Shown here in pieces: positions 9,841 to 55,971 of a DNA stretch of 64,000 bases (position 1 is the stretch's first letter; each line of letters begins with the position of its first letter). The stretch spans positions 316,515 through 380,514 of the forward strand of contig CBFIDD010000002.1 of the NCBI GenBank assembly GCA_965661285.1, read 5' to 3'. Below the pieces are notes generated by a model. That model had not been told where the DNA came from. It did not search any database and saw only the letters and a list, made by a program, of their open reading frames with translations. Made by a program: the position numbers and the translations under genes. This DNA is from Poseidonia sp. (GTDB lineage: Archaea; Thermoplasmatota; Poseidoniia; Poseidoniales; Poseidoniaceae).

Positions 9841-9925
9841 AATCAGAGGGTCACTCTGATTAGGCCTCAAAGCAGAGGGTACCCACTGCTTACCCATCTG
9901 AGCAAAGGGCGCCCTCTGAAGAATA
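9841..9925. repeat. degenerate third copy / hybrid of the cassette repeat between the nuclease gene and the TetR gene
   Basis: AATCAGAG-GGTCA-CTCTGATT palindrome (9841-9861). TCAAAGCAGAGGG. ACCCACTGCTTACCCATCTGA (cf. ACCCACTGCAAGCCCTCTGAT in the left repeat). GGGCGCCCTCTGAAG. Confidence 0.5.
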
Positions 9926-9935
9926 ATTATCCAAC

Positions 9936-32352: not shown

Positions 32353-32652
32353 ATGGATCTAAGCCGACAACTGAAGAACGCAATCGCAACAGGAAACCTG
32401 TTGTTTGGACAACGACAAACCAAGGACGCCTGCGCAAACGGGAACGCCAAAATGGTCATTGTGGCAGCCAACTGCCCCGAAGATTACACGACGGCCCTGC
32501 GTGCTGCCCACCCAGAAGTGAGCATGCATCGCGCACGCATGGTGAACCGAGAACTGGGTATTGCCTGTGGTAAACCCTTCTCCGTTTCCACCATCACCGT
32601 CCTCGACGCTGGCGATAGCGACTTGATGGCCCTCGAGAGCAACGTTGAGTGA
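32353..32652 (+). CDS. rpl30e: ribosomal protein L30e
   Basis: MDLSRQLKNAIATGNLLFGQRQTKDACANGNAKMVIVAANCPED is a typical L30e N-terminus. Conserved position after rpoA''. Confidence 0.85.
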   Translation: MDLSRQLKNAIATGNLLFGQRQTKDACANGNAKMVIVAANCPEDYTTALRAAHPEVSMHRARMVNRELGIACGKPFSVSTITVLDAGDSDLMALESNVE

Positions 32653-32704
32653 ACCCTCATCAACGGGACAAAGGCTTGATGGCCTTTGGTGCACACGACA
32701 AACC

Positions 32705-39230: not shown

Positions 39231-41351
39231 ATGCTTGATATGAACGAGCAGGAAGAACAGGTGGACGCATCCACCTATCCATTTCTTGCTCATGCCAATC
39301 CCCGACCTGGTCAACTAGAAATGATACAAGACGGCATCAAAGCGCTCCAAAACGGAGGCTACCATCTGGCAGCGGCGCCAACAGGTATCGGAAAAACCGC
39401 TGCTTCGTTGGCCGCGGCCCTCGAAGTGGCCAGTCAACAACCGCAGAAGAAAACCGTGTTTTTCCTCACCTCCCGCCAAACACAGCACCGCATCGTTGTG
39501 GATACCGTTCGCCGTATCAACCAGCGAAGAAAGGGCACGATGCCCGTTCGATTGGTCGACATGGTCGGTCAAGCCGGCATGTGCGTCCAACCCTTCGCCA
39601 AAGAATCCCCGTTGGTGTTCTCCCTCCTGTGCAGCCAAGCCAGAAAAACACGTTCGTGCAAGCCGTGGATCACATCGGCACCCGGGCTGAAGGAGCGAAT
39701 ATTGGCCTCGCCCCTTCATGTTGACGAACTGGTCGACATCGCCCGAACACACACGGCCAACGGCGAGCCTGCCCAAACCTGCCCGTGGAAAGCGGCTCGA
39801 GAAGCCGTGAGCGGCGCTGATGTCTTTGTTGGCGATTACAATCACCTCTTTGATGACGGTGTTCGGGAATCCAGCCTCAAAGCGATGGACCTTGACCTCA
39901 GCGACATCATCATCGTCGTTGATGAAGCACACAATCTCCCGGACCGTATCCGAATGACGCTGGAGAAACGACTGACAAGAACCATGATTCGAAATTCCCA
40001 GATGGAATTGGAGGAATACGCCGGCATGCTCGCACAAGCCATGAATGCTCCTGGAGGTGAAGCGCTCTCAATGGCGCACGGTCTTGCTTCTTGGGCGTTT
40101 GAGGTGATCAAAGCCTCACGTGTCGGATTCGATGCGCTTTTTTCCCAGTACCTACGAAACCTCTCGGGTCAAGACGAAGAGGCTGAGGTGAGCGTGGACG
40201 AGGTACTCAATGTCTTTCACCGTGCGTGCGATAGGGTGGAAGGGAAGGCTGGACAACAGCAACTCAACGCCCCGACCTCGTCCAAACATCCGGTTGTCGA
40301 CGTGGCCGTACGCATCCACCAACTTCGAGATGTTTTGGCAAGCGTTGACGTGGATATGGAGGCCGGTGATGACGGCAACCCGATGGAGCCCAATGCCCAC
40401 AGGGTTGCCGAGATTCTCGATTGCATGGTGAAATACGGTTCAACCCCAGCCCTGACCATGATTTACGACACCAAAGGGAAAGACGGGCGAATCACCACCC
40501 ACCTCCTCGACCCCGGTTTGGTCTCAAAGCCCGTCTTCGAACAGTCAGCAGGAGCCATGCTGATGTCTGGCACACTCTATCCACCCAGCATGTACGCCAA
40601 CATCTTGGCCCTCCCGAGTTCCTCTACCACGTCGGTTGCCTACCGGTCACCTTTCGCCGCCATGCGAAGACCGGTGCTCGTTGCGAAGAACGTGACGACA
40701 AAGTACACCGAGCGTGGGCCCGAAAACACCCGGGCCATTCGAGCACACATTCAATCCCTCATCGATGCTTCACCCGGCAACGTGGCCGTGTTTGCCCCCT
40801 CTTACGCGATGCTCAACGATGTCGTTCTTGAAGGGCATTTTACGGGGGCACGCATCATGGCCGAAAGCAGAGAATGGACCAAACAAGATTTGGACCAGGT
40901 GGTTGACACGTTGCTTGAGGAAAAGCGGAGCGGAAGAAAGATTCTCCTCGCTGGCGTATTTGGTGCTCGGCTCTCAGAAGGCGTGGACTACCACAGCGGA
41001 GCTCTTGACGCCGTGGCGTGTATTGGCATCCCAAACTCACCACCCTCTGTTCTCTCCAAGGCGCTGAAAACCTACGCAGAAGACCGTTTCGGACGAAATT
41101 TGGCCTGGCGATACACGGTGTCGCAGCCGGCTGTGAACGCCATCCTGCAAGCCATGGGCCGTCCCATCCGCTCCATTGGTGACCGCGCCCTGATTCTGCT
41201 GTTGGACCGCCGCGTTACCGACCGAACCTATGCCGGGTGTTTCCCGTCGGACTTACGTATGAACGATGCAAGCGACCATGACTCAACACGCCATTTCGCT
41301 CGACGCTTTTTCACAAAAGTTCACCCGGACCGCTCGCTGGAAAGCGAATGA
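39231..41351 (+). CDS. XPD/Rad3/DinG-family ATP-dependent DNA helicase with Fe-S domain
   Basis: Walker A AAPTGIGKTAASL. DEAH box VDEAHNLPD. Four-Cys cluster region (GMCVQP ... LLCSQ ... RSCKPW ... TCPWK). Helicase C-terminal motifs. 706 aa. Confidence 0.8.
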   Translation: MLDMNEQEEQVDASTYPFLAHANPRPGQLEMIQDGIKALQNGGYHLAAAPTGIGKTAASLAAALEVASQQPQKKTVFFLTSRQTQHRIVVDTVRRINQRRKGTMPVRLVDMVGQAGMCVQPFAKESPLVFSLLCSQARKTRSCKPWITSAPGLKERILASPLHVDELVDIARTHTANGEPAQTCPWKAAREAVSGADVFVGDYNHLFDDGVRESSLKAMDLDLSDIIIVVDEAHNLPDRIRMTLEKRLTRTMIRNSQMELEEYAGMLAQAMNAPGGEALSMAHGLASWAFEVIKASRVGFDALFSQYLRNLSGQDEEAEVSVDEVLNVFHRACDRVEGKAGQQQLNAPTSSKHPVVDVAVRIHQLRDVLASVDVDMEAGDDGNPMEPNAHRVAEILDCMVKYGSTPALTMIYDTKGKDGRITTHLLDPGLVSKPVFEQSAGAMLMSGTLYPPSMYANILALPSSSTTSVAYRSPFAAMRRPVLVAKNVTTKYTERGPENTRAIRAHIQSLIDASPGNVAVFAPSYAMLNDVVLEGHFTGARIMAESREWTKQDLDQVVDTLLEEKRSGRKILLAGVFGARLSEGVDYHSGALDAVACIGIPNSPPSVLSKALKTYAEDRFGRNLAWRYTVSQPAVNAILQAMGRPIRSIGDRALILLLDRRVTDRTYAGCFPSDLRMNDASDHDSTRHFARRFFTKVHPDRSLESE

Positions 41352-41863
41352 TGTCTGTCCGAAGGTTCATGTGGGCTCGTCCGTTGCAAAAGCCCATGGA
41401 CAATTGGCAACCGCTGGACATCACCACTGAGGATACGCCCTCCACGCCCCTTGAACCGGCCATTGATGGCCTCGAAACCGACGCTGCAAACCTCCAAGCA
41501 GCCTTTGAAACATCGAGTTCACATCTTGATGAAGTCCGAGCCCGCCACACCGAGGTGCTCGTCACCGCCGGTATGCTTCCCGAAACGGGATTGGCCGACC
41601 GCCACCCTGAGCGAGCCTTGGCTTGGATTGTTGAAAGCATCAACGGCCGCATGAACCCGGACGGCCTCACCGTACCGCTGCTGGGAACGACCGAGGAAGC
41701 CATTCGACTTCATGTGAAGAATACCGAAGACGCCACGCTGGTGAAGTTGGACATTCACGACCCGAACGGACCGCCCTTGCTCCGTGAACTCCCGCTGCCT
41801 GTTGAAGCCAGCGAAACGCTTCAAGCCACCTTTGTTGAGGGCAGGCTCCACCTTCGTTGGTGA
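41348..41863 (+). CDS. acidic hypothetical protein (possible Hsp20-like C-terminus)
   Basis: 171 aa. Coding-like composition. C-terminal ATFVEGRLHLRW resembles alpha-crystallin-domain ends. Overlaps the helicase stop by 4 nt. Confidence 0.3.
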   Translation: MMSVRRFMWARPLQKPMDNWQPLDITTEDTPSTPLEPAIDGLETDAANLQAAFETSSSHLDEVRARHTEVLVTAGMLPETGLADRHPERALAWIVESINGRMNPDGLTVPLLGTTEEAIRLHVKNTEDATLVKLDIHDPNGPPLLRELPLPVEASETLQATFVEGRLHLRW

Positions 41864-41880: not shown

Positions 41881-44800
41881 TCACCGCTGCGGGATGGCTT
41901 GCATTTGAGCGATTTCACCGCTCATTCGCGTCAGTGCTTGGACAGCGACCTCTTGGTGTTGAGGGCCCATCTCTTCTCGACTGTACCGGGCCATCTCAAA
42001 CGTGTTGTCGAGGGCGGTCAGAGCATCCTCTGACACGCCCTGCAGCGCTTGGCGGATGGCGAATTCGAATTCCCGAACGGTTTCGAAGTCACGTCGGAGG
42101 AAGCCACGCTGCTGCAGCAGACCGCAGAGGTCCTGATAGCAGGTGAAGATGGCTTCTCGTGTTGCATCCCCGGCCGCCAACAACTCGGCGGTGTAAGCGA
42201 AGACCTCGGCCGCATCCTTGAGCAGGTCGTCGGCGAGTTGCTTTCGTCGGTACATCACGACGCCACCGGCGATGAGCGCGGCGAGCGCAAGCACGAGGAG
42301 GTAGGACCACCACGGTGTTTCCGCTTGTTCTTCTGCAAATTCGTATTGCACAGCAAAGCCTTCACTTCGCAGTGATTCAAAGCCCTGAAGGCTTTGGGCT
42401 GAAAGGCGAGGATCGTTCACGATGATATCCATGGTCAACTGGCCCCAAACATCAGCATCGCCGTATGGCGGGTCAGCATCGAACACAAAGGTGGCTTTCC
42501 CGGTTTCATCGGTTTGAGCACCACGGTTGGCGAGTTGGGATTGGTTGGCATCGTAGAGATAAATGACAACATCAATCCCCGGCAAGCCCGTACCCGTATC
42601 TTCGGCGATAACGGTGAGGGAACCGCCCACGTCTTCTTGTTCGTCCTCAACCACCTCGAGGAGGTCTACGGTGATGACGGCGTCGACCTGTACAAACACC
42701 GTTTGACTGATGCTGGCAGCGTTGAGGTAAAGGGAATCGTTTCGAGCGACGTCAAGGAAGAAATACTGCGAACCGACTTCGAGCCAATACGGCGCCGTTG
42801 CGGTCAGCGAGAAGTTTCCGTTTGACCACACGACGCTGCTCTCTGTGAAGCAGCGTGCTCCTTCCCGACCACCCTCACAATCCGAACCGTTCCCAATGCT
42901 CAGCAGGAGGTTCTCAAAGACCTCACCTGAGCCTCCGATCTCCTGCACAGAACCCGAATAGAAGACGGGTTCAAACACACTATCAGAGCGGGTGACGACG
43001 TTCGTGTTTGAAGTTGGGTCGACTTGAATCAACAGGTCAGCCCATACCCGAACACTGCTTTCTACGTCGGCTGGAAGATGCGCCTGCGTCCCTCCAAAGA
43101 CCACGCCGATGGTGTGTTCGCCCCGGGACAAGTCCATGGTTGCAGGCACCGTTGCGCTCCACGCACCATCAGCACCGGTGGTGGTCGTGAAGAGCGTGTT
43201 TCCGTCGAGTTGGACGAGCAATTCGAATCCGACCAAACCGTCGCGGTCAACGGTGTCGAAGTCGTACAGGCGGCCACTCAATTCCCATGTGTCGCCACGG
43301 GTGGCATCAATACCATCGTCGAACACCAAGGTGACCCATGAACGATGGGAGAGGAAGAACGAGACGTTTCCTTCCCCGGCACGGTAATATCCTTGTGGGG
43401 GTGATTCTGCGAACAAGGTTCTGTTCCCGAAGTCAAAGATGTCGGGAACGACCCAGTCATAGGTGAACGCACCGTTTTGGTCGGTGGTCAAGGTGGAGAT
43501 GACGATGCCTTCCACGACCAGTTGAACTTCGTGGTTTGCAACGCCCACGAGTTGATTGTCAACCACCGAACCGGTGATGGTCACGGTTTGGTTCACCGCC
43601 ACCGGCGAGGAAATATCCACCGTTACGAGGACTGGACTGAAGATTTCCCACAAACCACTGGCGTTGCTGGGGAGGTAAGCCACGGTCCCGGTGAATCGGG
43701 TTTCCAGAACCACTGGACCAAGCGGAGCGTCTGCGGGCACAGGATGGACCGCAGAAAACTCGCCAAGTTCGTCCGTCGTCGTGTTGGTCAGCCACTGACC
43801 ACCCAGCCATACCTCGATGGTCAGGTTCGGTAGCGGGTTGTCAACCACATCGAGAAGACGGCCTTGGATGGTGATCGTTGTTTCTCGGTCGGCATCGCCT
43901 GTTGCGGTCAACAGGAGAATCTTCGTGGGTACGCTAACGTTGAATTCCACCATCGCAGAGCTGGGTTGGTAGTATTCGGGATTGTTGGTGTCCCCGTAGC
44001 CGACAGGGTCAACCCATTCACGACCACCACGGAACTCCACCGAGATTTGGTGGGGACCTGCAGCCGTGTCTTCTGGGAGCGCGTACGAAAGGGTGTATGC
44101 ACCCGAGATGTTGTCCGTTTCAATGCTGGCAACGGGAACGCCATCGATGAGAAGGTGCACCACGGCAGTGGAAGGTACACCGTTTCGTTGCAAGACCAAG
44201 CCCAGGTCGTCCAACAGCGTGCCGTTCACGACCAACATGTCGCCAGCCACCAGCACCGTTGGTGCTTCGGTGATGGTAACCTCGGTCGCACCGAGGACGA
44301 CAAAGGACGAACTGGCGTTGGTTCCAATGATGCCCGTGGTGCCGGCGATTCCGGTGTAGTCCGCATGGATGCCGGTCGGGCCGACGCTCATGTTGGCTGG
44401 GACGGTCAGGTTGCCCCAAGCAGAACCGTTGGAAGCCGTCAAGACCGTGATTTGGACGGGTGAAGCATCGTTCAGCGTCGCCGTGAGCGAGACGAGGACG
44501 CTTTGATTAGCCAGCGGGAGGCCTTGGTTGTCCCGGAGGAGAATCGAGAACTCAACGATGTCTCCCCTTTCGGTTCGGTCGTTCAACGAGGGTTGACCGA
44601 TACCGTCAAGTGCGGGGAGAATGAAATTCATGACCGAGAACCCACGAGAATCGAACGAGGTGTTGTTGGTCGAGCCAACGTAATAGTTGACACTCGGGAT
44701 GTAGGTGGCTTCCATCACGTGGCTACCAGCGGCGAAGGTTTCACTGAGGCGAATCGTGGCGTTCCAATACCCATCAGCACCGACGGCACCGCCTGTGGCG

Positions 44801-47800
44801 GTGAAGCCAGTCGGTTGGCCGTCAATGGAGAACAACACGTTGGCGTTCGCCAAGACGGAGTTGTCCCGCTCAACCAGTCCCGAGCCGTTGTCGGAGGTGA
44901 TTTGCCCGCTGATGTTGAAGGAGGTTCCTGCAACGGGGTTGGCTGCGATGCTGTCAACGACCATGAAAGTCAACGAGCGCACGGTGATGCTGGTCAGGTT
45001 GGCGCTGGTTGAAAGGAGGTCGGTGGAACCGTTGAACACCATCTGAACCACGATGAGGCCCAGAGGATGGTCATAGGGCACGTTGTAGGTGAAGTTGGCA
45101 AACCCTTCTCCGTCCGTGGTTTGTGGCAGGAGCCATGTTTCGTGGAATTGCAGCGCCACCTCGTAATTCGAGAGAGGAGTAAACAAGTCTGAGGCTTCGA
45201 CAAGTTGCGCTGACATGTTGATGTCGTTTCCACGGTTGATGACCACGGCATTCAACGGCTGGAGGTTCTCGAGGCGAGAGACGCCCATGACCTGGATGGG
45301 CGATTGCGCCGTGGCGGTGAGATAGAACGGCGAGGACTCGTTGACGACGGTGACCACCAGCGTGTGCGGGCCACGGGTCGTACCGTTGCCGGCCGTGTCG
45401 GTTGGCACGGTCATGTTGAAACTCCCGTTGTTGGTTGTGGCGTAGTTGCTCAAGAGCAACTCTTCGGGGTTTTCTAGCCAGAACACGTTCAGCCTGACGG
45501 CGGAAATGAGTGGACGGGTTGCGTTCTCAGCGTCTTCAACCTGCCCGACGACGTTGAACGGGACGCCTGCCGTTACCGTACTTGGCACAGAGATGAGCGA
45601 GATATCGCTGGTGACTTGCACGGTCACGTTGATCACAGTCAAATTACCGTAGCGGCGCGAGTTACCTTCACTAAGAGCTGCTGTGAGGTCGTCCTGAACA
45701 ACGATGCCGACGTCGTAGAACCCGGGTGCAATGCCCGACGGTGTGAAGTCGAACGTGGAGTTTCCTTCGCCGTTTGAGACCACCGTTCCAAGGCTTTGGT
45801 TTGACTTACCGTAATCCCAGACATAGTCAACGCTTGCTCCGCTGATGTTGGAGTTGTCCGCAATGTCGGTGATCTTCGCCGTGAATGAAACCGTGTTGTT
45901 CATCTCCACGATGTAGGATGAGCGTTCGGCCTCCACCACAACCTCGGTGATGATCCCACCCAGCGTGGATATTTGTGCTGGGGGTGCAGGGGGGACGGAC
46001 GTATCCACAAAGGCGTAGTATGCGCCGCCCGCAGGCGCTTGACTGACGAAGTCAAAGTCAAGAATGAATTCATAAGCGTCTGAACGGAGGTTCATCGGCA
46101 TCCTGATAGGGATATCAAAGGCACCTGTGCTGTTGTTCAAGGTTGATTGCGCGATGTCGATGGGCCCTTGTTCGGTGAACAGGCTGACACTGATGAGCGT
46201 GGTGTTGTTGAGGACCGGCGTGAGATAGACCGCATCAAAAACATCGCCGACAAGTCGGGTCGAGTTGCCCATGAATGTCCAATCCTGCCCGATGGAAAGA
46301 TTCCATCCGATGTTGGCCATGACACGTAGGGAACCGAGTCCAATTGAGGGTTGGTAAAACGATGAACCGTTGAAGGAGATGCCGATGGGGTAGTCGCCCG
46401 AGCGTAGGTTGGCATCGAGAGGGATCACAATTTCCAACACATCGGTTTCCGGATCCACGGTGGTGTTGAACCACGACCCATTGAAGGTGAAATCGTAATT
46501 GCCGAAGATTTCAACGCCGGCGCCCACGCCCCGATGGTCGTTGATCTGCACACTGACAAAAGCATCCTGTCCACGCACCTGTGATGACTCCTGGACCTCA
46601 AACGTCAGCAAGCCTCGGAGGAAGTACGGGGGGTCGACCGTCAAGTTAGCGTCGTCCGTTGCTGGCAGCGTTGAGGGGAAGAAACGCAATCGCGTCTCGA
46701 TAGCGCCGGCTGCTACACCAACGTTGGTTGGCATGGGATACTGAACGGTGAAATTCCCGGTGACACTTTGATTGAACAACTCCACCCAAACATTTCCGGA
46801 ATCCAAGGCCCGAATGGCAAACTGTAGGTTCCCTGTCAGAGCCGTTGGCGTTGGGCCGAGGGACAGGGCACTTCCGTTCACCCAAACGTCATCACCGAGG
46901 AGGAAAACGCTCCTGTTGCTGGTCAGAGGACCTTCGATGGTGGCCGTTAGATTTGGGGCCTCGGTGACGTTGAAGGTAATTGAGGTCGTGGTCGGGTTGA
47001 GATGGAAGAGAGCGGGTGTTGAACCTGGAACGGAGGCATCTTGCCAGCCTGAGAATCCAAGGGTCGCCGATAACGGACCGAGCGTCTCGGCCTCGCTCAA
47101 GTTGATCGAGATGCTCCAGGAGCCACTGATGTCGGTTTGTGCAGTGAGATTTTGCGCTCCGTCAACTGAAGAAGTGTACGACAGCCACACGGTTTGATTT
47201 GGCAGATTGGAGATTTCATCAATCGGTTCATTCGCCAGAGCCAAGCGGCCCTCGAGAACGGTTGTGGCGCCCGCGCCGACAACCGGGGTGTTGATGGCCA
47301 AGGGTGCGGTGTGGACGATGGTGGTGTTCTCGGTCAAATTGACGTAGCCTTCGAAAATAACGCCATCATGCGAAACATAACCGGATTGACGGTGTTCGAT
47401 GACGATGTTGTGCATACCGGGTGCACTGGGTGCGTCGGGGAAGCCGATCATGCTGAAATTGCCGTTGGGGTCAGTGATGTTTTCCTCAAGCAGGAGTGAA
47501 AGGTCAGCGCCTGGACCAGGGACAAAGGGTGCATCACTTACGGGTGAGAGGTAAGCGAACACACGAATATTGGATGCCGGAGTGCCGTTGGCGGCATACC
47601 TCAACTGCCCTGACACCGAGATGCTCTCGGTACCGTCCCGAGCAACGGTGAACGTTGAGATGGTTTGGTTAACGACCTCGATCTCCTCAGCTGGTGGGCA
47701 CGGGTCAAAGGCAATCCATCCGAGGTCGGTGTTTCCGTTGGCGCTGTTTTGCTGCAGTCGAACCTCCGACCACGTGGCGGCGTCCGAGGCGTAGACGGCA

Positions 47801-50800
47801 TAACCTTCGCCTGTCCATGTGCCTCCGATGTAGCCCGTCACCTGACGAGCAGGAAGCCCAGCAAGACGAGCCATGGTCACGAAGGCCGTGTTAAACTCAC
47901 GACACGAACCCTCTTTCACGGCTTCAACCACATTGAGGGTGACGTCCATCGGACTCATGGTTCCCGAACCGTTGAAGTTACGCTTGAACTCGGTCGTAGC
48001 ATTGCCGTTGGTGAGGAAGTCTTCCAGGGCAAGCGCCGTATTGTAAGCATCCGTTGCCCCTGCTTCGGCAATGACAGCGGCCGTGACGTTATTCACGTAT
48101 GAGAAGGCCGAAGAAGAGTCGGTAAACTGAGGGTCGACAAGCAGCTCGTAAGGGAAGCCTTGACCGGGGACGGTCGTTGACGCCAAGTTTGCCCAATCAA
48201 AGTAATACTCAGGTTGTTCGTACAAGACCTGCTCTACAGAACCAGCAACCAGCGAGAGCATGTGCGTATCGTTCGACCTTGAGATGTTGGCTGAGGTTTC
48301 GAAGACGAATGAGATGTTGGAATAATATGCAGGAGCAGGGATTTGCCCTGTCGTTATGGGGCGGTTGAATTGAAGGTTCCACTGGACGGTTGAGTTGGCA
48401 AGGGAAATCGGTGCGAGGTGAGTAAAGTTGCTCATGGGAACAACGACCGCCTCCGAGGGATGAACGCTGTCGAGGTGCGCGTAGGTGCTTCCGGTGTAGA
48501 AGTCATTGGTGATGGTGCGCCACCGATGGTCGCCGTTGAGATCGACGACTCCCGAGGTATTGTTTGCGAAAAAGACAACATCATCCGACATGATGTCATC
48601 GCTGGGGTCAAACACATCAAAGGGCGCGCCTATGCAATCAAAAACCCAAAATGCATCAGGACACTCATCACCGTCAAGCATCCCACCACCGTCTGTATCG
48701 GGGTTGGTCCAGTCGGTTCCGGTTTGATTCTCAACGGCATCGGGCAATCCATCACCGTCAAAGTCGGCGGGTTGAATATCATCAGAAGGATCGTTTTGCG
48801 GGTTCGTTCCGTCAAAGTATTCACTGCGGTCATCCACGCCCCCCTGGTCGGTATCGAACGCGTTGGGAGCTGTCACCCAAACATCTTGGGAGCCGTTGGT
48901 GATGCCGATGTAAATCAAATCACAGCCAGTGGTGTTCTCAAAGTAGTTGTTGAGTCCGTCGGCGTCATCGTCCAAGAGATTTGAACACGGCTGATTGGGA
49001 TCGGTGTTGTCCTGAACTTCGTCAAAGTCATTCACGCCGTCAGCATCGCTGTCGGCGATGCTGGGATTGGAGAACCATCCAAAGGTCCCGAGAAGTTCTT
49101 GCCAGTCTGCCAGACCATCACCGTCGGTGTCCTCGTAATCGTCGTCGCAATACTGCTGCGTTGTGCTGATTGTTCCTGAATTCGTGGCAGCCGTGTGGCA
49201 AAATGAACCGTTGCGATTTGCTACCTGGGTCGCCACGCCCGAGGGCCCGTTGGAAACACCCTGCAGAATGTTGGCAACCACAGTCGCGTAGGCAAAACTT
49301 TCCCATGTTCCGGATACGTTGTACCAACCAACGCCCCCTGCGGGGTTGAAACCCGAGCCGTTTCCTACTTCGACCCTGCTGGCGCTGAGTTCCTGCACGA
49401 AGGTGGTCTCAAAGTTCACAAGTGAATCGCAAGGATCCGTACCGTGGCTGATGTTTCGTTCCTGCCCGTCGTTGATGCCGCCAAAGTCCGTGTCGGCCAC
49501 ATTCCACAGCGTACACGTCAGGTTTTCCTCCCAGTTCTGTATGCCGTCCTGGTCTTCGTCTCCTGAATCCTCACGGCGTGTGGGGTCCGTCTCACCGGCA
49601 TCCAACACACCGTTGAAGTTGGTGTCTTCCTCGCCGTCATCAAAAGCATCCCCGTCGGTGTTGTTGTTGCGCGGGTCGCTGGCTTGGGCAGGGTTGCCGT
49701 AAGCACCGTTCACCTCGATACCGTCGCTGATCCCGTCGCTGTCGGTGTCCGAAGACGTTGGATCGGTCAGCAACGTAAAGGCTTCGTACGAATCGTTCAA
49801 CCCGTCGCCGTCGGTGTCTGCCCTCTGCGGATCTGTCGAGGTGATACCGTCAACCTCAGCGGTAAATGTGGCACAACCACCCGGTCCAATGCCTTGGACT
49901 GGGTCGCAGGGCGAGGTGGTCTCGGTGACGATGCCATCGGGGCCGTTGCGGAAACAGGGCGAAGAGCCGCACATGGTCGTCCATGTCGGGTTGACGTACT
50001 CGAGGAGGTTGTTCAGGCCATCACCGTCGGGGTCGCCGTTTGGACCGTCAGCGTTGGAGGGCGAGGTGGCGTTCAAGCCGTTAGCGGCTTCCCAACCGTC
50101 GGGCATGCCGTCGCCGTCGGTGTCCCAACCTGCGGGGTCTTCATCGATGACGCCGTCGCCATCATCGTCATCCGATAGACAATCGGCATCGCCGTCGTTA
50201 TCCGAGTCCGCCGAGTCGACAAATCCGTCTTTATCATCATCAAATCCATTGGCGCAAATATTCCCGACGGGGTCCTCGTCGCAGAGGATGATCGAGCCCG
50301 TGCCGTCGGAACCTGCCGCACCGCATGCGGGTTGGTTGAACTGCATGGCGTCTTCCTCGTTCCAGTCGTTCACGGGAACGGTGCCGTTCCACCAAACACC
50401 GTTGTCCAGGACAGAAGCGGTGTTGGTGTTGTCCCAACCGCTGGGTTGGAGGTAGAGGTATTCTTGCAAATTGGACATGCCGTCGCCATCCGGGTCAGCG
50501 ACTGCGCCATCGGCACCGGTGGACGACAACGGGTCGAGGCCGTACTTCCACTCCCAGCCATCGGGCAAGCCGTCGTTGTCCGAGTCGGGGTCGTTGGGTT
50601 GGGTGTTCATGAGGTACTCAAGGCCGTACGTGAGACCATCACCGTCCTGGTCGGATGCTGCTTGAACATCAACGACCGTGTACTGAATGGAGGCGAGGGT
50701 GGAGAGGACCATCAAGAGGGTGAGTGAGAGCGACTTGAGCGCTTTTTTCCGCTCTGCGAGGGCTGGTCGAATCGCGGCCGCATTGGAATTCGAGCCTGTC

Positions 50801-50814
50801 AGCATGAGTCTCAC
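41881..50814 (-). CDS. giant (2977 aa) membrane-anchored surface protein: signal, TSP3 Ca-binding repeats, transglutaminase-like core (His apparently replaced), many Ig-like/beta-sandwich repeats, TM, DUF4129-like cytoplasmic tail
   Basis: Signal LSLTLLMVLSTLASI. N-terminal DxDxDG repeats. TGase-like GSCREFNTAFVTMARLAGLPARQVTGY ... ATWSEV ... WIAFDPCP. C-terminal WWSYLLVLALAALIAGGVVMY TM then RRDFETVREFEFAIRQAL ... FEMARYSREEM. Confidence 0.8.
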   Translation of the reverse strand: MRLMLTGSNSNAAAIRPALAERKKALKSLSLTLLMVLSTLASIQYTVVDVQAASDQDGDGLTYGLEYLMNTQPNDPDSDNDGLPDGWEWKYGLDPLSSTGADGAVADPDGDGMSNLQEYLYLQPSGWDNTNTASVLDNGVWWNGTVPVNDWNEEDAMQFNQPACGAAGSDGTGSIILCDEDPVGNICANGFDDDKDGFVDSADSDNDGDADCLSDDDDGDGVIDEDPAGWDTDGDGMPDGWEAANGLNATSPSNADGPNGDPDGDGLNNLLEYVNPTWTTMCGSSPCFRNGPDGIVTETTSPCDPVQGIGPGGCATFTAEVDGITSTDPQRADTDGDGLNDSYEAFTLLTDPTSSDTDSDGISDGIEVNGAYGNPAQASDPRNNNTDGDAFDDGEEDTNFNGVLDAGETDPTRREDSGDEDQDGIQNWEENLTCTLWNVADTDFGGINDGQERNISHGTDPCDSLVNFETTFVQELSASRVEVGNGSGFNPAGGVGWYNVSGTWESFAYATVVANILQGVSNGPSGVATQVANRNGSFCHTAATNSGTISTTQQYCDDDYEDTDGDGLADWQELLGTFGWFSNPSIADSDADGVNDFDEVQDNTDPNQPCSNLLDDDADGLNNYFENTTGCDLIYIGITNGSQDVWVTAPNAFDTDQGGVDDRSEYFDGTNPQNDPSDDIQPADFDGDGLPDAVENQTGTDWTNPDTDGGGMLDGDECPDAFWVFDCIGAPFDVFDPSDDIMSDDVVFFANNTSGVVDLNGDHRWRTITNDFYTGSTYAHLDSVHPSEAVVVPMSNFTHLAPISLANSTVQWNLQFNRPITTGQIPAPAYYSNISFVFETSANISRSNDTHMLSLVAGSVEQVLYEQPEYYFDWANLASTTVPGQGFPYELLVDPQFTDSSSAFSYVNNVTAAVIAEAGATDAYNTALALEDFLTNGNATTEFKRNFNGSGTMSPMDVTLNVVEAVKEGSCREFNTAFVTMARLAGLPARQVTGYIGGTWTGEGYAVYASDAATWSEVRLQQNSANGNTDLGWIAFDPCPPAEEIEVVNQTISTFTVARDGTESISVSGQLRYAANGTPASNIRVFAYLSPVSDAPFVPGPGADLSLLLEENITDPNGNFSMIGFPDAPSAPGMHNIVIEHRQSGYVSHDGVIFEGYVNLTENTTIVHTAPLAINTPVVGAGATTVLEGRLALANEPIDEISNLPNQTVWLSYTSSVDGAQNLTAQTDISGSWSISINLSEAETLGPLSATLGFSGWQDASVPGSTPALFHLNPTTTSITFNVTEAPNLTATIEGPLTSNRSVFLLGDDVWVNGSALSLGPTPTALTGNLQFAIRALDSGNVWVELFNQSVTGNFTVQYPMPTNVGVAAGAIETRLRFFPSTLPATDDANLTVDPPYFLRGLLTFEVQESSQVRGQDAFVSVQINDHRGVGAGVEIFGNYDFTFNGSWFNTTVDPETDVLEIVIPLDANLRSGDYPIGISFNGSSFYQPSIGLGSLRVMANIGWNLSIGQDWTFMGNSTRLVGDVFDAVYLTPVLNNTTLISVSLFTEQGPIDIAQSTLNNSTGAFDIPIRMPMNLRSDAYEFILDFDFVSQAPAGGAYYAFVDTSVPPAPPAQISTLGGIITEVVVEAERSSYIVEMNNTVSFTAKITDIADNSNISGASVDYVWDYGKSNQSLGTVVSNGEGNSTFDFTPSGIAPGFYDVGIVVQDDLTAALSEGNSRRYGNLTVINVTVQVTSDISLISVPSTVTAGVPFNVVGQVEDAENATRPLISAVRLNVFWLENPEELLLSNYATTNNGSFNMTVPTDTAGNGTTRGPHTLVVTVVNESSPFYLTATAQSPIQVMGVSRLENLQPLNAVVINRGNDINMSAQLVEASDLFTPLSNYEVALQFHETWLLPQTTDGEGFANFTYNVPYDHPLGLIVVQMVFNGSTDLLSTSANLTSITVRSLTFMVVDSIAANPVAGTSFNISGQITSDNGSGLVERDNSVLANANVLFSIDGQPTGFTATGGAVGADGYWNATIRLSETFAAGSHVMEATYIPSVNYYVGSTNNTSFDSRGFSVMNFILPALDGIGQPSLNDRTERGDIVEFSILLRDNQGLPLANQSVLVSLTATLNDASPVQITVLTASNGSAWGNLTVPANMSVGPTGIHADYTGIAGTTGIIGTNASSSFVVLGATEVTITEAPTVLVAGDMLVVNGTLLDDLGLVLQRNGVPSTAVVHLLIDGVPVASIETDNISGAYTLSYALPEDTAAGPHQISVEFRGGREWVDPVGYGDTNNPEYYQPSSAMVEFNVSVPTKILLLTATGDADRETTITIQGRLLDVVDNPLPNLTIEVWLGGQWLTNTTTDELGEFSAVHPVPADAPLGPVVLETRFTGTVAYLPSNASGLWEIFSPVLVTVDISSPVAVNQTVTITGSVVDNQLVGVANHEVQLVVEGIVISTLTTDQNGAFTYDWVVPDIFDFGNRTLFAESPPQGYYRAGEGNVSFFLSHRSWVTLVFDDGIDATRGDTWELSGRLYDFDTVDRDGLVGFELLVQLDGNTLFTTTTGADGAWSATVPATMDLSRGEHTIGVVFGGTQAHLPADVESSVRVWADLLIQVDPTSNTNVVTRSDSVFEPVFYSGSVQEIGGSGEVFENLLLSIGNGSDCEGGREGARCFTESSVVWSNGNFSLTATAPYWLEVGSQYFFLDVARNDSLYLNAASISQTVFVQVDAVITVDLLEVVEDEQEDVGGSLTVIAEDTGTGLPGIDVVIYLYDANQSQLANRGAQTDETGKATFVFDADPPYGDADVWGQLTMDIIVNDPRLSAQSLQGFESLRSEGFAVQYEFAEEQAETPWWSYLLVLALAALIAGGVVMYRRKQLADDLLKDAAEVFAYTAELLAAGDATREAIFTCYQDLCGLLQQRGFLRRDFETVREFEFAIRQALQGVSEDALTALDNTFEMARYSREEMGPQHQEVAVQALTRMSGEIAQMQAIPQR

Positions 50815-50893: not shown

Positions 50894-53869
50894 TCACAAA
50901 TCTTCGAGTTCCTCGAGCAGCTCGAGGTCGTCGTCATCGTCGTCTGCCAGCACAGGCGCAGGTAAATCATCGTCGTCCTCAATCGGCTCAAGTTCCTTTT
51001 CAAGACCCTCGTAGTCCTCGTAGTCTCCGTAGTTAGCAAGGTCAGGACTATCATCGCTGCGGCTTCCACGACCTCGTGCGTAGAAGAGCAGGGCCAAAAT
51101 TACAACGTAAAACGCAATGGTTTGCGGTTCAGGACTGACCAGTTCTCGCAGCAAACAGTTGGCGCCGCTGCATTCCGTCATGTAGTTGAAGGTGAAGGTC
51201 TGGACATAGTCTTCGGAGTACGGTGTCTCGTTGTTCATGGGCGTGACTCTGAACTCAAAGGCTGCTTGCTGGCTGTCTTTGAGATCTTCAGGAGCCTGCA
51301 TGGTCACGCTGAAATCCTTTGAGGAATATGCGGGGAGGTTGATGATGAGGAAATCGCTCCCCAACTGGTTTGAGGTCGCCCGGATGGCGCCCTCCCAACC
51401 ATCGGGTTGGTCAAGGCGAATCACGACGTCGAGCGGGATGTTGTTTTGGTTGCTGATGCGATATTCGAGGCTCTTTGATTCGCCCGGAGCGAAGCGAGAT
51501 TTCTCGGTTTTATCCGTGAGCTCGATGCGGTTTGGAACGACTTCTTCCTGAATGACAACCTTCACCGGGAGGTCGAAGTAGCGAGCGTCGTCAATGTCAA
51601 CACCCTCCTCGATGATGCGGGTGTAGACCGTGTGCTCACCCGCTTCCACCTGACCCCTCAAGGTGATGTCGAGTTTCATGTCGACGTACTCATCCGGGGC
51701 GAGGTTCACCGCCACCAAATTGGAGTTGCTGCCGTTGGAAATGACGTAGTCCCATGCAGCATACTTCGGGTTGTTTTCGGCGTTTTGTTCAACATCACGG
51801 GGATTGATGATCTTCCAGGTGGTTGAGCCAGAACCGGTGTCGCTGGAATCGGTAATTCGGAGATTGAAGTACACCGACGCATCGCCGGTGACCGGTCCAA
51901 CTTGACCGAGCGGATTGTCCTCGCCCGTCCCGTCGCTGTCCGAAATCACCTCGACAAGAATGCCAAACGTCCGGTGAACGGTGAAGGCGATGTCGGTGCG
52001 AAGTTCTGAATCTTCCTTGCTGGACACCGAGATTTCAAACAAACCGATGTCGACACCGTCTCGGTCGGCTGGAGGATAGACCTCCATTCGAATCGTCAGG
52101 ATTTGGGTCGAGCCGATGTCGGGCGTGAGCGAGTAGATGCCTTCCTCTGCGAGTTCAAGACCGGTATCGTTGTCGTAAAATCGGTACTGCCAGTCATCGG
52201 GTTGCTCAAGAATTCGCATTTTGAACGAGTCGGTCTGGAATCCCAAGTTGAAGACGTCGATGAAGAAATCACCGACCTCATCTGCATCCACGTAGTGCGA
52301 AAGGGTCTCATCATAGGCTTCCGGACGCGTTGAATCTGCGATTTGTTTCTGGTGCTCATCGTCTTCGTAGACAAAGAGACGTGGCGCGGCAAGGGTATCC
52401 ACTTCCTCGAATTCTAGCGTGAGGGTTCGTATGGCCACCTCTTCGTTTTGGCCGAGTTCGTTCTGTGCATAGACTCGTGCTTCGATTTCCAAGGAATCGG
52501 GCGCACTGTCCAAATCGCCCTCAGGAACTTCGAGTTGGAGTTCGGGGATGACCGATGCACCGCCGCCGTTGAGCGTGTAGGTGCTGCTTGGTGCGCTCCA
52601 CTGTGGGTCTGACCATGTTGAGGGGAGATTGGTTTCTAGGTCAAAGATCACGTCAATGCTGCTCGATGAGGAGCCCGTATGTTCCACGAGGAATTCGACT
52701 TGGACGACCGCACCGGGAGCGAATAAGACCACATCGGGCTGATTTGAGGGCAGGGTGAGGTAAATGTCGTTCTCAAGCATGGTGATGCCGGGGTGTTCAA
52801 ACACAACGGCGTGGCCCTGTACGTCCTCCACCTCAAGGCGAACGGGGTAGTCACCCGCAGCGATGCCTGCCTCGTAAGTGTAAGTGAAGTTGCCCACCAA
52901 GCCGTTGTTGTCGAGTTTGAAATCATCATCGTCAAAGTTCTTCTCGAAAACCACGTTTGCGCCGTTGGGCGTGTCCATGATGAGGTTGACCTCCTCAATG
53001 TCATCTCGGCCAAAGGCGTCGCGAACTTCAACGGAGAACTGCATCTCTCGGAAGTCAGGACGGTGGTTGGGGGACCACTCAAATTTCTGGGCGTCGTTCC
53101 AGTTGCACCCGAAGGCTTGGTTGCAACTGTGGACGCGTACGCTCGAACCGGAGAGGGCGTTGGTCATGACCTGGAGACGGGAGTACCCTCCCGAGCTTTC
53201 CATCTTGCCAAAGGCGATGTCAACCGCACAATCGCCACCACCCACACCGCCGGTGTTGCCTTCGCAGGTGGCTTGGGCGTCAATGCGGATTTTCAGTTGC
53301 TTTCCTTTGGCCACCATGAACCCGTTGGGCCCGGCGTCAAACTCCACTTCGATGATGCTCCAATCGCAGCCGCCCCCGGTGAAGGGGTTCGGCGAGCATG
53401 CATCTTCCAGTTGTCGGTTCTCTGAGGAAATTTGGGTGTCGCCCGACTTGAGCGAAAAGGTGACATCTGCGGTGGAACCCTCGGCGCCACGGAATTGGAT
53501 GTAGACAGACAGGCGAGCGGTGTTGGAGGAACCGCTTCCGTTGATGTAGAGGTCGCTGATCATCTCGGCGCTTCGGAACTCCAATCCGTCAATGGCGCTG
53601 CCTTCTTCCTGGCCGCCGTTGGGTTCAATTGTGGTAATGGAACCTTGCCCGCCGGTTTCTGAGGTCGCAGCATCGAGATAGAGTTCGTAGGTTTGCTCGG
53701 GGACAGAAACAGGAGCCACAACACGCTCGTCGTCCAGTGTTTGAATCGGCGTGAGAACAGGCGCTGCGGGCACCATCATGCCCACCAAGGAGAACACGAA
53801 CAACGCAACGAGACCAAAGGCCACGGTGCGCTTGCCATTTCCTGAGTCACCAAACAGCATCAAGTCCAC
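50894..53869 (-). CDS. large (991 aa) surface protein with N-terminal anchor/signal, C-terminal TM and poly-acidic cytoplasmic tail
   Basis: TVAFGLVALFVFSLVGMMVPAAPV near the N-terminus. Beta-rich acidic ectodomain. C-terminal AFYVVILALLFYARG TM then DDDDLPAPVLADDDDDDLELLEELEDL. Confidence 0.6.
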   Translation of the reverse strand: MDLMLFGDSGNGKRTVAFGLVALFVFSLVGMMVPAAPVLTPIQTLDDERVVAPVSVPEQTYELYLDAATSETGGQGSITTIEPNGGQEEGSAIDGLEFRSAEMISDLYINGSGSSNTARLSVYIQFRGAEGSTADVTFSLKSGDTQISSENRQLEDACSPNPFTGGGCDWSIIEVEFDAGPNGFMVAKGKQLKIRIDAQATCEGNTGGVGGGDCAVDIAFGKMESSGGYSRLQVMTNALSGSSVRVHSCNQAFGCNWNDAQKFEWSPNHRPDFREMQFSVEVRDAFGRDDIEEVNLIMDTPNGANVVFEKNFDDDDFKLDNNGLVGNFTYTYEAGIAAGDYPVRLEVEDVQGHAVVFEHPGITMLENDIYLTLPSNQPDVVLFAPGAVVQVEFLVEHTGSSSSSIDVIFDLETNLPSTWSDPQWSAPSSTYTLNGGGASVIPELQLEVPEGDLDSAPDSLEIEARVYAQNELGQNEEVAIRTLTLEFEEVDTLAAPRLFVYEDDEHQKQIADSTRPEAYDETLSHYVDADEVGDFFIDVFNLGFQTDSFKMRILEQPDDWQYRFYDNDTGLELAEEGIYSLTPDIGSTQILTIRMEVYPPADRDGVDIGLFEISVSSKEDSELRTDIAFTVHRTFGILVEVISDSDGTGEDNPLGQVGPVTGDASVYFNLRITDSSDTGSGSTTWKIINPRDVEQNAENNPKYAAWDYVISNGSNSNLVAVNLAPDEYVDMKLDITLRGQVEAGEHTVYTRIIEEGVDIDDARYFDLPVKVVIQEEVVPNRIELTDKTEKSRFAPGESKSLEYRISNQNNIPLDVVIRLDQPDGWEGAIRATSNQLGSDFLIINLPAYSSKDFSVTMQAPEDLKDSQQAAFEFRVTPMNNETPYSEDYVQTFTFNYMTECSGANCLLRELVSPEPQTIAFYVVILALLFYARGRGSRSDDSPDLANYGDYEDYEGLEKELEPIEDDDDLPAPVLADDDDDDLELLEELEDL

Positions 53870-54851: not shown

Positions 54852-54954
54852 CTCATGAAGGCTCGTATGTGACTGGCGCCATCATCACCCAATCGCGAGC
54901 CCCGCACACCTTTTTTGGTGACCGCTTGGTGGCATTGAGCACTGGGGGCAAAGA

Positions 54955-55971
54955 ATGGAAGGAAAACCGCTCCCAATGGCCTCTGCAAGCGAGCCCCGCA
55001 CGCCCGCTCGCCGCCTCCCGGAATGGTTCCGCACCAGCTTGCCGAGCGGTGAGCAACAGGCCACCTTCAACGCCACCAAGTCGGCGGTCAAGGACAACAA
55101 ACTCCACACCGTATGCGAAGAAGCACGATGCCCCAACATCCACGAGTGTTGGGCCAGCGGCGACGCCACGTTCATGATCGCCGGCCAAGAATGCACCCGC
55201 GGCTGTCGCTTTTGCGCGGTGGGCACCATCAAGCGACCACCGCCCCTTGACCCGGAGGAACCGCAGCACCTTGCCCAAGCCGTCGGCTCGATGAATCTCC
55301 GTCATGCTGTCATCACCGTTGTGAATCGGGACGACCTTCCCGACAGCGGCGCGGACCACTACAAGCAATGCATCGACGCGGTGGCGACCACCTCGCCTGA
55401 AGTGACGCTCGAACTCTTGTGTTCTGACCTTGCTGGAGATCTCGATGCCCTGGCCCATTTGTTGGACCAGAGTCCTTTGTCGGTGTTTGCTCACAATGTG
55501 GAGTGCGTCCCCCGACTGGACGCAACCGTCCGGGATGCTCGAGCCTCGTTCGGTCAGTCCATTGCCATCCTCAAGGAAGCCAAACGCCTGCGTCCGGACA
55601 TCATCACCAAATCCTCGCTGATGGTGGGTGTTGGCGAAACCGATGAAGAAATTGACGAGGCTCTCGGCCTGCTTCGAGACGCCGGCGTTGACCTCGTGAC
55701 CATCGGGCAATACCTTGCACCGTCCAAAAAACACCTGCCAGTGGACCGATTCCCTGAGCCCGAACGCTACGACGAGTGGGCAGAGAAAGCCATGCAACTC
55801 GGCTTCTCGGGGGTTGCCAGCGGCCCGCTGGTTCGGTCCTCCTACAAAGCCGGCCTCTTGGTGCGGAAAACCCTAGACCCCGAGAACAGCGAAACCATGC
55901 TGGGCGCCTATGTTCGTGTTGCTCAACCCCATCCTTCCCTACCGACACCACTTAAGACGGACGAGCCCTGA
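54955..55971 (+). CDS. lipA: lipoyl synthase
   Basis: CEEARCPNIHEC and radical-SAM CTRGCRFCAV motifs. RLPEWFRTSLP N-terminal region. Immediately upstream of the 2-oxoacid dehydrogenase operon. Confidence 0.9.
   Translation: MEGKPLPMASASEPRTPARRLPEWFRTSLPSGEQQATFNATKSAVKDNKLHTVCEEARCPNIHECWASGDATFMIAGQECTRGCRFCAVGTIKRPPPLDPEEPQHLAQAVGSMNLRHAVITVVNRDDLPDSGADHYKQCIDAVATTSPEVTLELLCSDLAGDLDALAHLLDQSPLSVFAHNVECVPRLDATVRDARASFGQSIAILKEAKRLRPDIITKSSLMVGVGETDEEIDEALGLLRDAGVDLVTIGQYLAPSKKHLPVDRFPEPERYDEWAEKAMQLGFSGVASGPLVRSSYKAGLLVRKTLDPENSETMLGAYVRVAQPHPSLPTPLKTDEP

Follow-up and report, generated by a model that had tools for sequence, protein, structure and literature searches.

Architecture and distribution of the giant gene

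The reverse strand of the 64-kb window (the whole stretch of DNA analysed here) carries a giant gene, and its 2977-codon open reading frame, noticed in an earlier sequence-only reading, is real and uninterrupted (Table 1). The nearest ortholog, which is 99% identical, begins at the ATG of codon 4 and has 2974 aa. The next gene upstream, 79 bp away from the giant's start and read in the same direction, encodes a COG1470-family membrane protein, referred to here as the partner. Hydropathy of the giant showed a signal-like N-terminal segment and one transmembrane (TM) segment. Conservation among orthologs starts exactly at the predicted cleavage site (residues 53-54, A-SDQDGDG), and we infer that the signal peptide is cleaved between VQA and AS. 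The protein is read as a ~318-kDa type-I membrane glycoprotein with predicted topology and glycosylation, a view that forms part of the overall reading given below and shares its probability.

Table 1. Features of the giant gene, its predicted protein and the partner gene, with positions in the window
Feature	Residues	Position	Strand	Remarks
Whole ORF of the giant protein	1-2977	41881..50814	-	2977 codons from GTG start, no interruption
Probable true start, ATG	codon 4	50805..50803	-	start of nearest ortholog
Predicted signal peptide	1-52	50659..50814	-	positive n-region (RKK), hydrophobic core, cleavage-like site VQA-AS; hydropathy
Acidic TSP3-repeat head, predicted calcium-binding	53-744	48583..50658	-	Pfam, motif count, ortholog alignment
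TgpA-like ectodomain module	745-1045	47680..48582	-	N-terminal beta-sandwich, helical region, transglutaminase/papain-like core
Transglut_core (PF01841)	918-1038	47701..48063	-	54.7 bits, GA 23
Cys971 (TGT), catalytic-Cys position	971	47902..47904	-	invariant: 118/118 orthologs, 80/80 species loci
Ala1013 (GCC), in catalytic-His column	1013	47776..47778	-	column A/T/S/R/G, never H
Asp1037 (GAC), catalytic-Asp position	1037	47704..47706	-	D 113/118, E 5/118 orthologs
Cys1039 (TGC), clade-specific, Asp+2 (FDPCP)	1039	47698..47700	-	invariant; Thr in canonical relatives
Stalk	1046-2833	42316..47679	-	non-repetitive Ig/MG/CarboxypepD_reg-like beta-sandwich domains
Single TM helix, then YRRK	2834-2857	42244..42315	-	hydropathy
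Cytoplasmic tail	2858-2977	41884..42243	-	four-helix bundle with DUF4129, near-invariant
DUF4129 (PF13559)	2892-2961	41932..42141	-	31.6 bits, GA 24.8, 68/69 profile positions (1-68)
Partner, 991-aa COG1470-family membrane protein		50894..53869	-	N-terminal TM/signal, C-terminal TM, poly-acidic tail

The archaeal origin assumed in the sequence-only reading was supported. The protein had also been called unusual, but it is no one-off: the gene was found in the genomes of at least 80 Poseidoniales species, with 233 relatives in GTDB and a 2012 MG-II assembly included, and it already bears the database name 'transglutaminase domain-containing protein'. It is a single-copy gene: each of the 80 species genomes has a single locus, as does every Poseidoniaceae-type (MGII) genome listed. 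Lengths stayed within 2,908-3,014 aa across 118 orthologs, down to 54% identity, and in a 31%-identical ortholog architecture and synteny were unchanged. Where the contig permits a check, a ~990-aa COG1470 partner lies upstream (66/66 loci) and a convergent XPD helicase gene downstream (62/62 loci); the DUF4129 tail was present in all 68 testable loci. No signalling genes were seen adjoining the giant gene. MoxR and DUF58 genes were absent from its neighbours in loci L001, L002 and L083, and phmmer queries for both, taken from locus L084, gave nothing in a six-frame translation of the window.

The TSP3 repeats, the transglutaminase-like core and the DUF4129 tail behind the C-terminal TM helix, all named in the sequence-only reading, were recovered with Pfam above gathering scores and by hydropathy. 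In the head, TSP3_bac (PF18884) scored 28.7 bits (GA 25) over five stretches, and the region 77-692 contains 14 D-x-D-x-D-G-x-x-D motifs that are predicted to bind calcium. All 22 Cys of the giant are invariant among orthologs and occur in neighbour pairs, of which 8 (16 Cys) are in the head and one is 971/1039. Conservation is highest over the first ~400 residues of the head (51-450) and in the tail (2851-2950). The adhesin-type NCBIfam models Ca_tandemer and CglD matched weakly, far under their cut-offs (21.6 bits against 50 for Ca_tandemer) and within the TSP3 repeats only.

Pfam models matched in the stalk were MG2, Big_1 and SpaA in the giant itself, and Big_3_5, MG4, bMG3 and CarboxypepD_reg in orthologs; the MG2 match is borderline (33.5 against 32.8 bits), with no single stretch passing alone, and the number of ~15-18 stalk domains is an estimate from length only. 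The stalk holds 63 N-X-S/T sequons compared to 20.7 +/- 4.0 in shuffled sequences, a ~3-fold enrichment, and 45 of 85 sequons are kept in at least 90% of orthologs; the cytoplasmic tail has none. This pattern suggests that the ectodomain is N-glycosylated. Neither TRF on the DNA nor self-BLASTP of residues 1050-2830 detected repeats, and the C[GA][EQ][QE] motif that marks the alpha-2-macroglobulin/thioester class (CGEQ type) is absent from the giant. The TM helix runs unbroken into the tail bundle, and DUF4129 matched within the last 110 aa, as had been supposed, with the motifs RRDFETVREF at 2907 and FEMARYS at 2939.

A transglutaminase-like core without the catalytic His

The core of the giant belongs to the papain-like transglutaminase fold, and Cys971 takes the place of the catalytic Cys at a helix N-terminus. 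As stated in the sequence-only reading, the Cys (GSCREF, 969) and Asp (FDPCP, 1036) positions are kept, and ATWSEV (1013) replaces the H-x-W-x-E-V of the Transglut_core motif, with Ala1013 at the catalytic His. Three independent alignments placed a non-His residue there. In a phmmer comparison with the solved TgpA structure 6G49, the best PDB sequence match of the giant, DAHAW stands opposite DAATW. The same column reads A46/T32/S31/R6/G2 in the alignment of 118 orthologs and T36/A29/S12/G2 in the 80 species genomes. The third alignment, a core HMM alignment of the clade with ~140 canonical relatives, gave nearly always C..HxWxE..D/E-P-T in the relatives and C..x..D/E-x-C in the clade. With His in none of the 118 orthologous proteins and none of the 80 species genomes, its loss is ancestral, and every ortholog has gained the Cys at Asp+2 instead.

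Residues 852-1134 of the giant contain no His at all, and the Cys-His-Asp triad that is intact in TgpA-type enzymes is broken at the His. The W1015 and E1017 of the motif are invariant in the 118 orthologs. Position 1011 is Asp in the giant and D or N in most orthologs, with His in 31/118 orthologs and 13/80 species, and the beta-sandwich preceding the core has conserved His at 763, 780, 785 and 851. The Transglut_core score of 54.7 bits compares with 95.1 for the canonical single-core protein P0240 and with 179.6 for P0226, whose two cores were added together.

Likeness to known proteins

The extracytoplasmic module of the giant has the TgpA fold. Behind it, as in TgpA (PA2873) of Pseudomonas aeruginosa and proteins of its type, come a TM helix and, on the cytoplasmic side, DUF4129. 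The DUF4129 signature T-x-x-E-F ... F-E-x-A-R-Y-S is common to the giant and to canonical proteins that combine TgpA_N, core and DUF4129. In contrast to these, the giant lacks the multi-TM TgpA_N and has a signal peptide in its stead: TgpA_N/DUF3488 (PF11992) had no match in the giant at E<=1 and scored 118.8 bits in P0240. The giant also lost the catalytic His and gained a Cys at Asp+2, it adds the ~690-aa TSP3 head and the ~1,790-aa predicted-glycosylated stalk, and it is archaeal, 4-5 times larger and without a MoxR or DUF58 neighbour. The sequence-only reading had overlooked the gain of Cys1039 coupled to the His loss, the constant partner gene, and the lack of TgpA_N and of MoxR/DUF58 neighbours. 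PA2875 and PA2874, which we take to be a MoxR-type AAA+ ATPase and a DUF58 protein, represent a pairing that also adjoins the multi-core giant P0133. They are co-transcribed with tgpA, and transglutaminase activity has been measured for the TgpA ectodomain (PMC3507681).

A representative search returned further TgpA-derived giants with several cores, for example P0133 (2801 aa) and P0226 (1897 aa). Like the Poseidoniales protein they have a large ectodomain with transglutaminase cores, a CarboxypepD_reg/Big/MG-type stalk, a C-terminal TM helix and DUF4129, and P0226 resembles it further in a head-like region (53 bits) and in its tail, which is closely related (90 bits). They differ in that they carry 2-7 cores, most with C-H-D/E and D/E-P-T, whereas the Poseidoniales giant has one His-less core. 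MoxR and DUF58 genes come next after P0133 but do not adjoin the Poseidoniales giant, and the other multi-core giants listed do not match the TSP3-head profile, except P0177 weakly (37 bits).

Inactive transglutaminase-like domains serve as scaffolds in EPB42 (erythrocyte protein 4.2), Rad4 and FBXO21 (PMC10318531). However, EPB42, Rad4/XPC and FBXO21 are eukaryotic, intracellular and mostly without the Cys, whereas the domain of the archaeal giant is predicted to be extracellular and has kept Cys and Asp, with His alone lost. The tetrabrachion of Staphylothermus marinus and the S-layer glycoprotein of Haloferax have an acidic, N-glycosylated ectodomain, a C-terminal anchor and a head far from the membrane. 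The giant resembles such archaeal S-layer and surface glycoproteins in its signal peptide, very acidic sequon-rich ectodomain, C-terminal anchor and probably constitutive gene, which is single-copy in each genome listed, and by its predicted features it is secreted, N-glycosylated (as the sequon enrichment suggests) and C-terminally anchored like an S-layer glycoprotein. It is, however, far larger than typical S-layer proteins, and NCBIfam and Pfam gave no match in it to S-layer families or to a PGF-CTERM/archaeosortase signal.

A candidate pseudo-transglutaminase of the cell envelope

Since the catalytic His was lost in the clade, a structural or binding role is most likely. We favor, with a probability of roughly 55%, the view that the giant is a TgpA-derived pseudo-transglutaminase and a constitutive envelope or contact glycoprotein, in which the module is a structural or binding part rather than a cross-linking enzyme. 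The inactive binding module suggested in the sequence-only reading fits the data, but its "cross-linker" is at odds with a general-base His that is missing throughout the clade. The ancestor would have been a TgpA-type membrane transglutaminase, of which the giant would have kept the extracytoplasmic module (beta-sandwich and papain-like core), the TM helix and the cytoplasmic four-helix DUF4129 domain. A signal peptide and a TSP3 head, rich in disulfides and binding calcium, would have taken the place of the multi-TM TgpA_N, with ~1,790 residues of putatively heavily N-glycosylated beta-sandwich domains between core and membrane. The module would no longer act as a Cys-His-Asp transamidase or protease and would be retained as a structural or ligand-binding pseudoenzyme. 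Cys971 is probably engaged with Cys1039, either through a disulfide that spans the pocket left empty by the imidazole or because both serve, together with Asp1037 and residue 1011, as ligands. By analogy with papain, the side chain at Asp+2 packs against the His ring, and the C-alpha distance to the catalytic Cys may still be too long for a disulfide without backbone shifts. The giant would be an element of fixed length in the cell envelope or in cell-surface contact, holding a calcium-rigidified head tens of nanometres off the membrane, engaging a conserved cytoplasmic partner through its DUF4129 tail and probably acting together with the co-located COG1470 protein. Against this view, a distal head so well conserved would also be expected of a receptor for one conserved ligand.

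The invariant Cys971 and near-invariant Asp1037 could alternatively mean that some chemistry was kept. The core would then still be an enzyme with a non-canonical site, in which Cys971 and Asp1037 form a dyad that, assisted by residue 1011 (His in a minority), a beta-sandwich His or Cys1039, cross-links or trims envelope proteins, with the partner or its own stalk as substrate, parallel to the supposed action of TgpA on the bacterial envelope. The constancy of W1015 and E1017 is in line with such an enzyme, but both are structural in canonical cores as well. Residue 1011 shares its strand face with the lost His, which comes two positions later, and is itself His in some orthologs, and the adjacent beta-sandwich offers its four conserved His; however, because 1011 is mostly D or N and the core has no conserved His, there is no clade-wide general base. 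While the closest structure, the TgpA ectodomain, is an active transglutaminase (PMC3507681), the Pfam score of the giant is well under those of intact-triad relatives, and the MoxR and DUF58 genes of one such relative are missing here. We therefore consider a surviving enzyme unlikely. Even less probable is a transmembrane sensor, in which the pocket (Cys971, Cys1039, Asp1037 and Asp/His/Asn1011) is a redox (thiol-disulfide) or metal switch whose state reaches the DUF4129 bundle by way of the one TM helix. All four positions are potential metal ligands or redox-active, two being invariant and two restricted to ligand-type residues (D/E and D/H/N), and the helix leads unbroken into an almost invariant tail. 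The ~1,790-residue beta-sandwich stalk between pocket and membrane nevertheless makes conformational coupling implausible, signalling genes are not adjacent, and the sole invariant His of the tail (2953) putatively falls outside the logic of a CheA-like alignment.

The sequence-only reading had also named the giant an adhesin candidate. As a classical environmental adhesin it would use its TSP3 head and a dead transglutaminase pocket to fasten the cell to particles or phytoplankton. This would suit a giant, acidic, stalked and predicted calcium-binding protein with weak Ca_tandemer and CglD matches and the particle-associated lifestyle proposed for MGIIa, and Rinke et al. counted thrombospondin genes among the markers of adhesion in Poseidoniales (PMC6461757). 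Yet the NCBIfam matches are far under cut-off and confined to the TSP3 repeats, and a single-copy, non-repetitive gene of near-constant length, in perfect synteny with housekeeping genes and with conserved head and tail, is a poor fit, which leaves this role possible but unlikely too. Bap-, RTX- and LapA-type adhesins are repetitive, length-variable and often strain-variable or island-borne. The giant falls outside this repeat-type class, having no near-identical tandem repeats or variable copy number. That conservation peaks in the distal head likewise argues against an environmental adhesin.

Domain layout and relation to TgpA

The gene of the giant protein is an unbroken open reading frame of 2977 codons that starts with GTG (coordinates of this and the other features are collected in the table). 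Since a 99%-identical database ortholog begins at the ATG corresponding to codon 4 (50805..50803), the true product is probably 2974 aa. A database look-up with the exact sequence returned no record, and the orthologs supplied the context. The sequence-only reading had placed TSP3 repeats, a transglutaminase-like core and a DUF4129-like tail in this archaeal protein, and these assignments were borne out by Pfam: TSP3_bac scored 28.7 bits (gathering score 25), Transglut_core 54.7 bits over residues 918-1038 (gathering score 23), and DUF4129 31.6 bits over residues 2892-2961 (gathering score 24.8), with positions 1-68 of the 69 in the profile aligned. The motifs were found as quoted (GSCREF at 969, ATWSEV at 1013, FDPCP at 1036, RRDFETVREF at 2907 and FEMARYS at 2939), and the surrounding genome is archaeal, encoding RpoB, a split RpoA'/A'' and FtsZ.

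Hydropathy analysis gave a signal-like N-terminal segment and exactly one transmembrane helix (residues 2834-2857). The signal peptide has a VQA↓AS-like cleavage site, and the cleavage-like site coincides with the onset of conservation among orthologs (residues 53-54, A-SDQDGDG). Overall the giant is strongly acidic (pI 4.05); its TSP3 head, with 14 D-x-D-x-D-G-x-x-D motifs between residues 77 and 692, consists for 21.8% of Asp and Glu and holds 16 of the 22 cysteines.

When the PDB was searched with phmmer, the top match was the membrane transglutaminase TgpA of Pseudomonas aeruginosa (6G49). Compared with TgpA, the giant lacks the multi-TM TgpA_N/DUF3488 domain and instead has a signal peptide, a TSP3 head of ~690 aa, and a β-sandwich stalk of ~1,790 residues that separates the core from the membrane. 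It is a TgpA-derived, single-pass, C-terminally anchored protein with a His-less transglutaminase core. A thioester/alpha-2-macroglobulin identity for its MG-like domains was rejected, as the CGEQ motif is absent.

A representative search also yielded dozens of multi-core giants (1,000-3,300 aa, 2-7 cores) resembling P0133, a TgpA-derived relative with intact triads. P0133 itself (locus L084, 8001..22012; 2801 aa) has HEAT repeats, an Ig-like stalk, a DUF4129-like end and four cores, two of which have Gly or Ser for Cys. Its gene is followed by an 822-aa gene and then by MoxR (AAA_3) and DUF58 genes; no homologs of these MoxR or DUF58 neighbours were present within the 64-kb window.

Loss of the catalytic His is coupled to gain of a Cys

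Three independent alignments agreed that the core has lost its His, as had been proposed from the sequence. In the phmmer alignment, DAHAW of TgpA was paired with DAATW. When 118 full-length orthologs were aligned with MAFFT, Cys971 was kept in 118/118 and the Asp1037 column read D113/E5, while the His column (Ala1013 in the giant) read A46/T32/S31/R6/G2 and never His. Finally, 1.84 billion proteins were searched exhaustively with HMMER and the best 150 representatives were aligned on a core HMM; almost all cores outside the orthologous group read C…H-x-W-x-E…D/E-P-T, and all members of the group read C…(non-His)…D/E-x-C. The resulting C-(T/A/S/G)-D-C pattern was found in 79 of 80 species-level Poseidoniales genomes, the remaining locus being truncated.

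Residues 852-1134 of the giant contain no His at all. Two residues ahead of the lost His, position 1011 is His in 31 of the 118 orthologs; as it is Asp in the giant and D/N in most others, a general base is not conserved clade-wide. Conserved His 763, 780, 785 or 851 of the preceding β-sandwich may lie near the Cys971 site. We infer from these alignments that the giant is not a Cys-His-Asp enzyme.

Cys1039, two residues after the catalytic Asp, is invariant, clade-specific and coupled to the loss of His, the position being Thr in canonical relatives. All 22 cysteines of the giant are invariant in the ortholog alignment and arranged as neighbour pairs: 164/178, 187/212, 282/287, 303/314, 434/462, 539/556, 610/631 and 718/727 in the head region, and 971/1039, 2646/2655 and 2892/2897 elsewhere. 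This arrangement suggests a bond, or joint action, between Cys971 and Cys1039.

The tail carries a further invariant, Poseidoniales-specific set, the C2892-x4-C2897 pair and His2953, which could form a small metal or redox site. These residues fall outside the general DUF4129 signature, and because the Cys pair is clade-specific the metal-site reading was set aside.

Glycosylation, conservation and gene neighbourhood

N-X-S/T sequons were strongly enriched in the stalk (63 against 20.7 ± 4.0 in shuffled sequences) and in the TgpA-like module (10 against 4.0), and the tail had none; 45 of the 85 sequons were conserved in at least 90% of orthologs. This distribution supports a topology with the ectodomain outside and the tail inside, and points to heavy N-glycosylation. 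Neither DNA tandem repeats nor, by self-BLASTP, internal protein repeats were detected in the giant. Conservation peaked in the membrane-distal head (residues 51-450, mean top-residue fraction about 0.9), the cytoplasmic tail was likewise among the best-conserved regions (residues 2851-2950, 0.82-0.89), and the transglutaminase core was intermediate (0.76-0.80).

At least 120 near-full-length orthologs were found (54-99% identity, all about 2,908-3,014 aa), named, where a name was given, 'transglutaminase domain-containing protein' of Poseidonia, Poseidoniales or Thermoplasmatota. Relatives are encoded in 233 GTDB species genomes; the best 80 of these carry one locus each, are essentially all Poseidoniales or Poseidoniaceae, and include the 2012 MG-II assembly CM001443.1. 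One locus titled 'Verrucomicrobiales bacterium' (NZEQ01000074.1) carries the archaeal giant with 80% identity to that of the window; in all likelihood this is a Poseidoniales contig that was binned wrongly.

The DUF4129 tail was present at 68/68 testable loci, a convergent XPD helicase lay downstream at 62/62 testable loci, and a membrane protein of ~990 aa stood directly upstream on the same strand at 66/66 loci where the contig permits the test. Over a wider stretch the genes follow one another as 2-oxoacid dehydrogenase operon, LipA, SDR, tRNA-Leu, partner, giant and XPD, and even a 31%-identical ortholog of 3,088 aa (P0130) keeps partner, giant, small ORF, XPD and RHH in this order. The giant is conserved and syntenic throughout Poseidoniaceae-type MGII genomes.

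The upstream partner, named 'COG1470 family / uncharacterized membrane protein' in databases, has an N-terminal TM or signal and a C-terminal TM followed by a poly-acidic tail. It contains 5 sequons against 85 in the giant, and its sequence diverges a little more quickly (62/50/26% identity, where the giant has 72/56/31%). The partner shares no sequence similarity with the giant or with the 822-aa neighbour of P0133, so that paralogy with the former and kinship with the latter were rejected; a PDB sequence search with it gave zero matches. On the other side, the small ORF that converges on the 3' end of the giant overlaps the stop codon of the XPD helicase by 4 bp and has equivalents of 147-165 aa at the same position in three relatives' loci (L001, L002 and L083); it looks like a member of the XPD operon, not of the giant's unit.

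Possible functions of the giant

Among archaea, Poseidoniales (MGII) dominate the sunlit ocean and outnumber all other planktonic groups at its surface; they have yet to be cultured. To our knowledge nothing is known of their cell envelope, and we know of no function for DUF4129 in any organism. Our literature search found almost nothing on DUF4129, no paper joining MGII/Poseidoniales to this transglutaminase-like family, and no statement on an MGII S-layer or metaproteome; Rinke 2019 (PMC6461757) mentions only 'thrombospondin genes'. The gene family itself already stands in databases under a generic name. What is new is that His has been lost throughout the clade in a change coupled to the gain of Cys1039; that the giant derives from TgpA at the level of the fold, with DUF4129 kept and without TgpA_N or MoxR/DUF58; that a COG1470 partner is fixed beside it; and that its gene is single-copy in each listed genome, syntenic and length-fixed.

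The sequence-only reading had put the giant forward as an adhesin. This is still possible, and Rinke et al. (PMC6461757) do count thrombospondin genes as adhesion markers; the variable environmental type of adhesin, however, fits worse. The fixed length, the lack of repeats, the single copy, the housekeeping synteny and the conserved distal head better suit a constitutive envelope or contact glycoprotein, which we prefer. A non-canonical enzyme is possible as well, in view of the strict retention of Cys971 and Asp1037, while a redox or metal sensor is unlikely given the stalk of ~1,790 residues between pocket and membrane. We infer that the TgpA-like module has been kept as a structural or binding pseudoenzyme; inactive transglutaminase-like domains are already known from EPB42, Rad4 and FBXO21 (PMC10318531). 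The evolutionary route would then be a clear one: a bacterial-type envelope enzyme module became a component without catalytic role in a giant surface protein, when it lost the catalytic His and, in a coupled change, acquired a partner Cys, with the cytoplasmic DUF4129 retained throughout.

The giant is a membrane-anchored protein of ~318 kDa with predicted heavy glycosylation, and all the listed species genomes have it, at a fixed length and between fixed neighbours. This makes it a leading candidate for an important structure of the surface, which might serve as envelope scaffold, as contact organ or as virus receptor. The most far-reaching form of the envelope reading, to which we give a probability of about 0.2, has the giant and its fixed partner make up the main MGII envelope scaffold, a stalked, calcium-stabilised glycoprotein canopy that would functionally be an S-layer. 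Such a canopy would go back to a membrane transglutaminase and the sealing of its active site, with His lost and Cys971 paired with Cys1039, and DUF4129 would tie it to the cytoplasm. If true, this would offer the first molecular handle on the MGII cell surface and a likely virus receptor.

Other genes in the window

Features of the window discussed in the text
Feature	Coordinates	Strand	Size	Remarks
Low-GC patch	8001..10000			GC 0.446 vs about 0.57 elsewhere in the window
AspBHI_N + Mrr_cat restriction endonuclease	8612..9799	-		type IV, modification-dependent; within low-GC patch
TetR-family regulator	9936..10586	-		adjoins the endonuclease
Second large TSP_3-repeat protein	32645..36187	+	1180 aa
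Small ORF	41348..41863	+	171 aa	no Pfam match
Giant	41881..50814	-	2977 codons
Giant tail, Cys pair and His2953	41953..42141	-
Partner	50894..53869	-	991 aa	COG1470-family membrane protein
ORF	54853..55797	-	314 aa	no Pfam match
Lipoyl synthase	54955..55971	+		LIAS_N + Radical_SAM; overlaps the 314-aa ORF

The 314-aa ORF is probably spurious, because the gene called at that position in relatives is the lipoyl synthase. The restriction endonuclease gene probably serves in defence and arrived by horizontal transfer. Close paralogy between the second TSP_3 protein and the head of the giant was rejected, their similarity being at motif level only; the second protein adjoins L7Ae and RpoA'' and is syntenic in relatives, with 1141 aa in L002 and more than 1,100 aa in L001, a locus that stops short of the gene's end.
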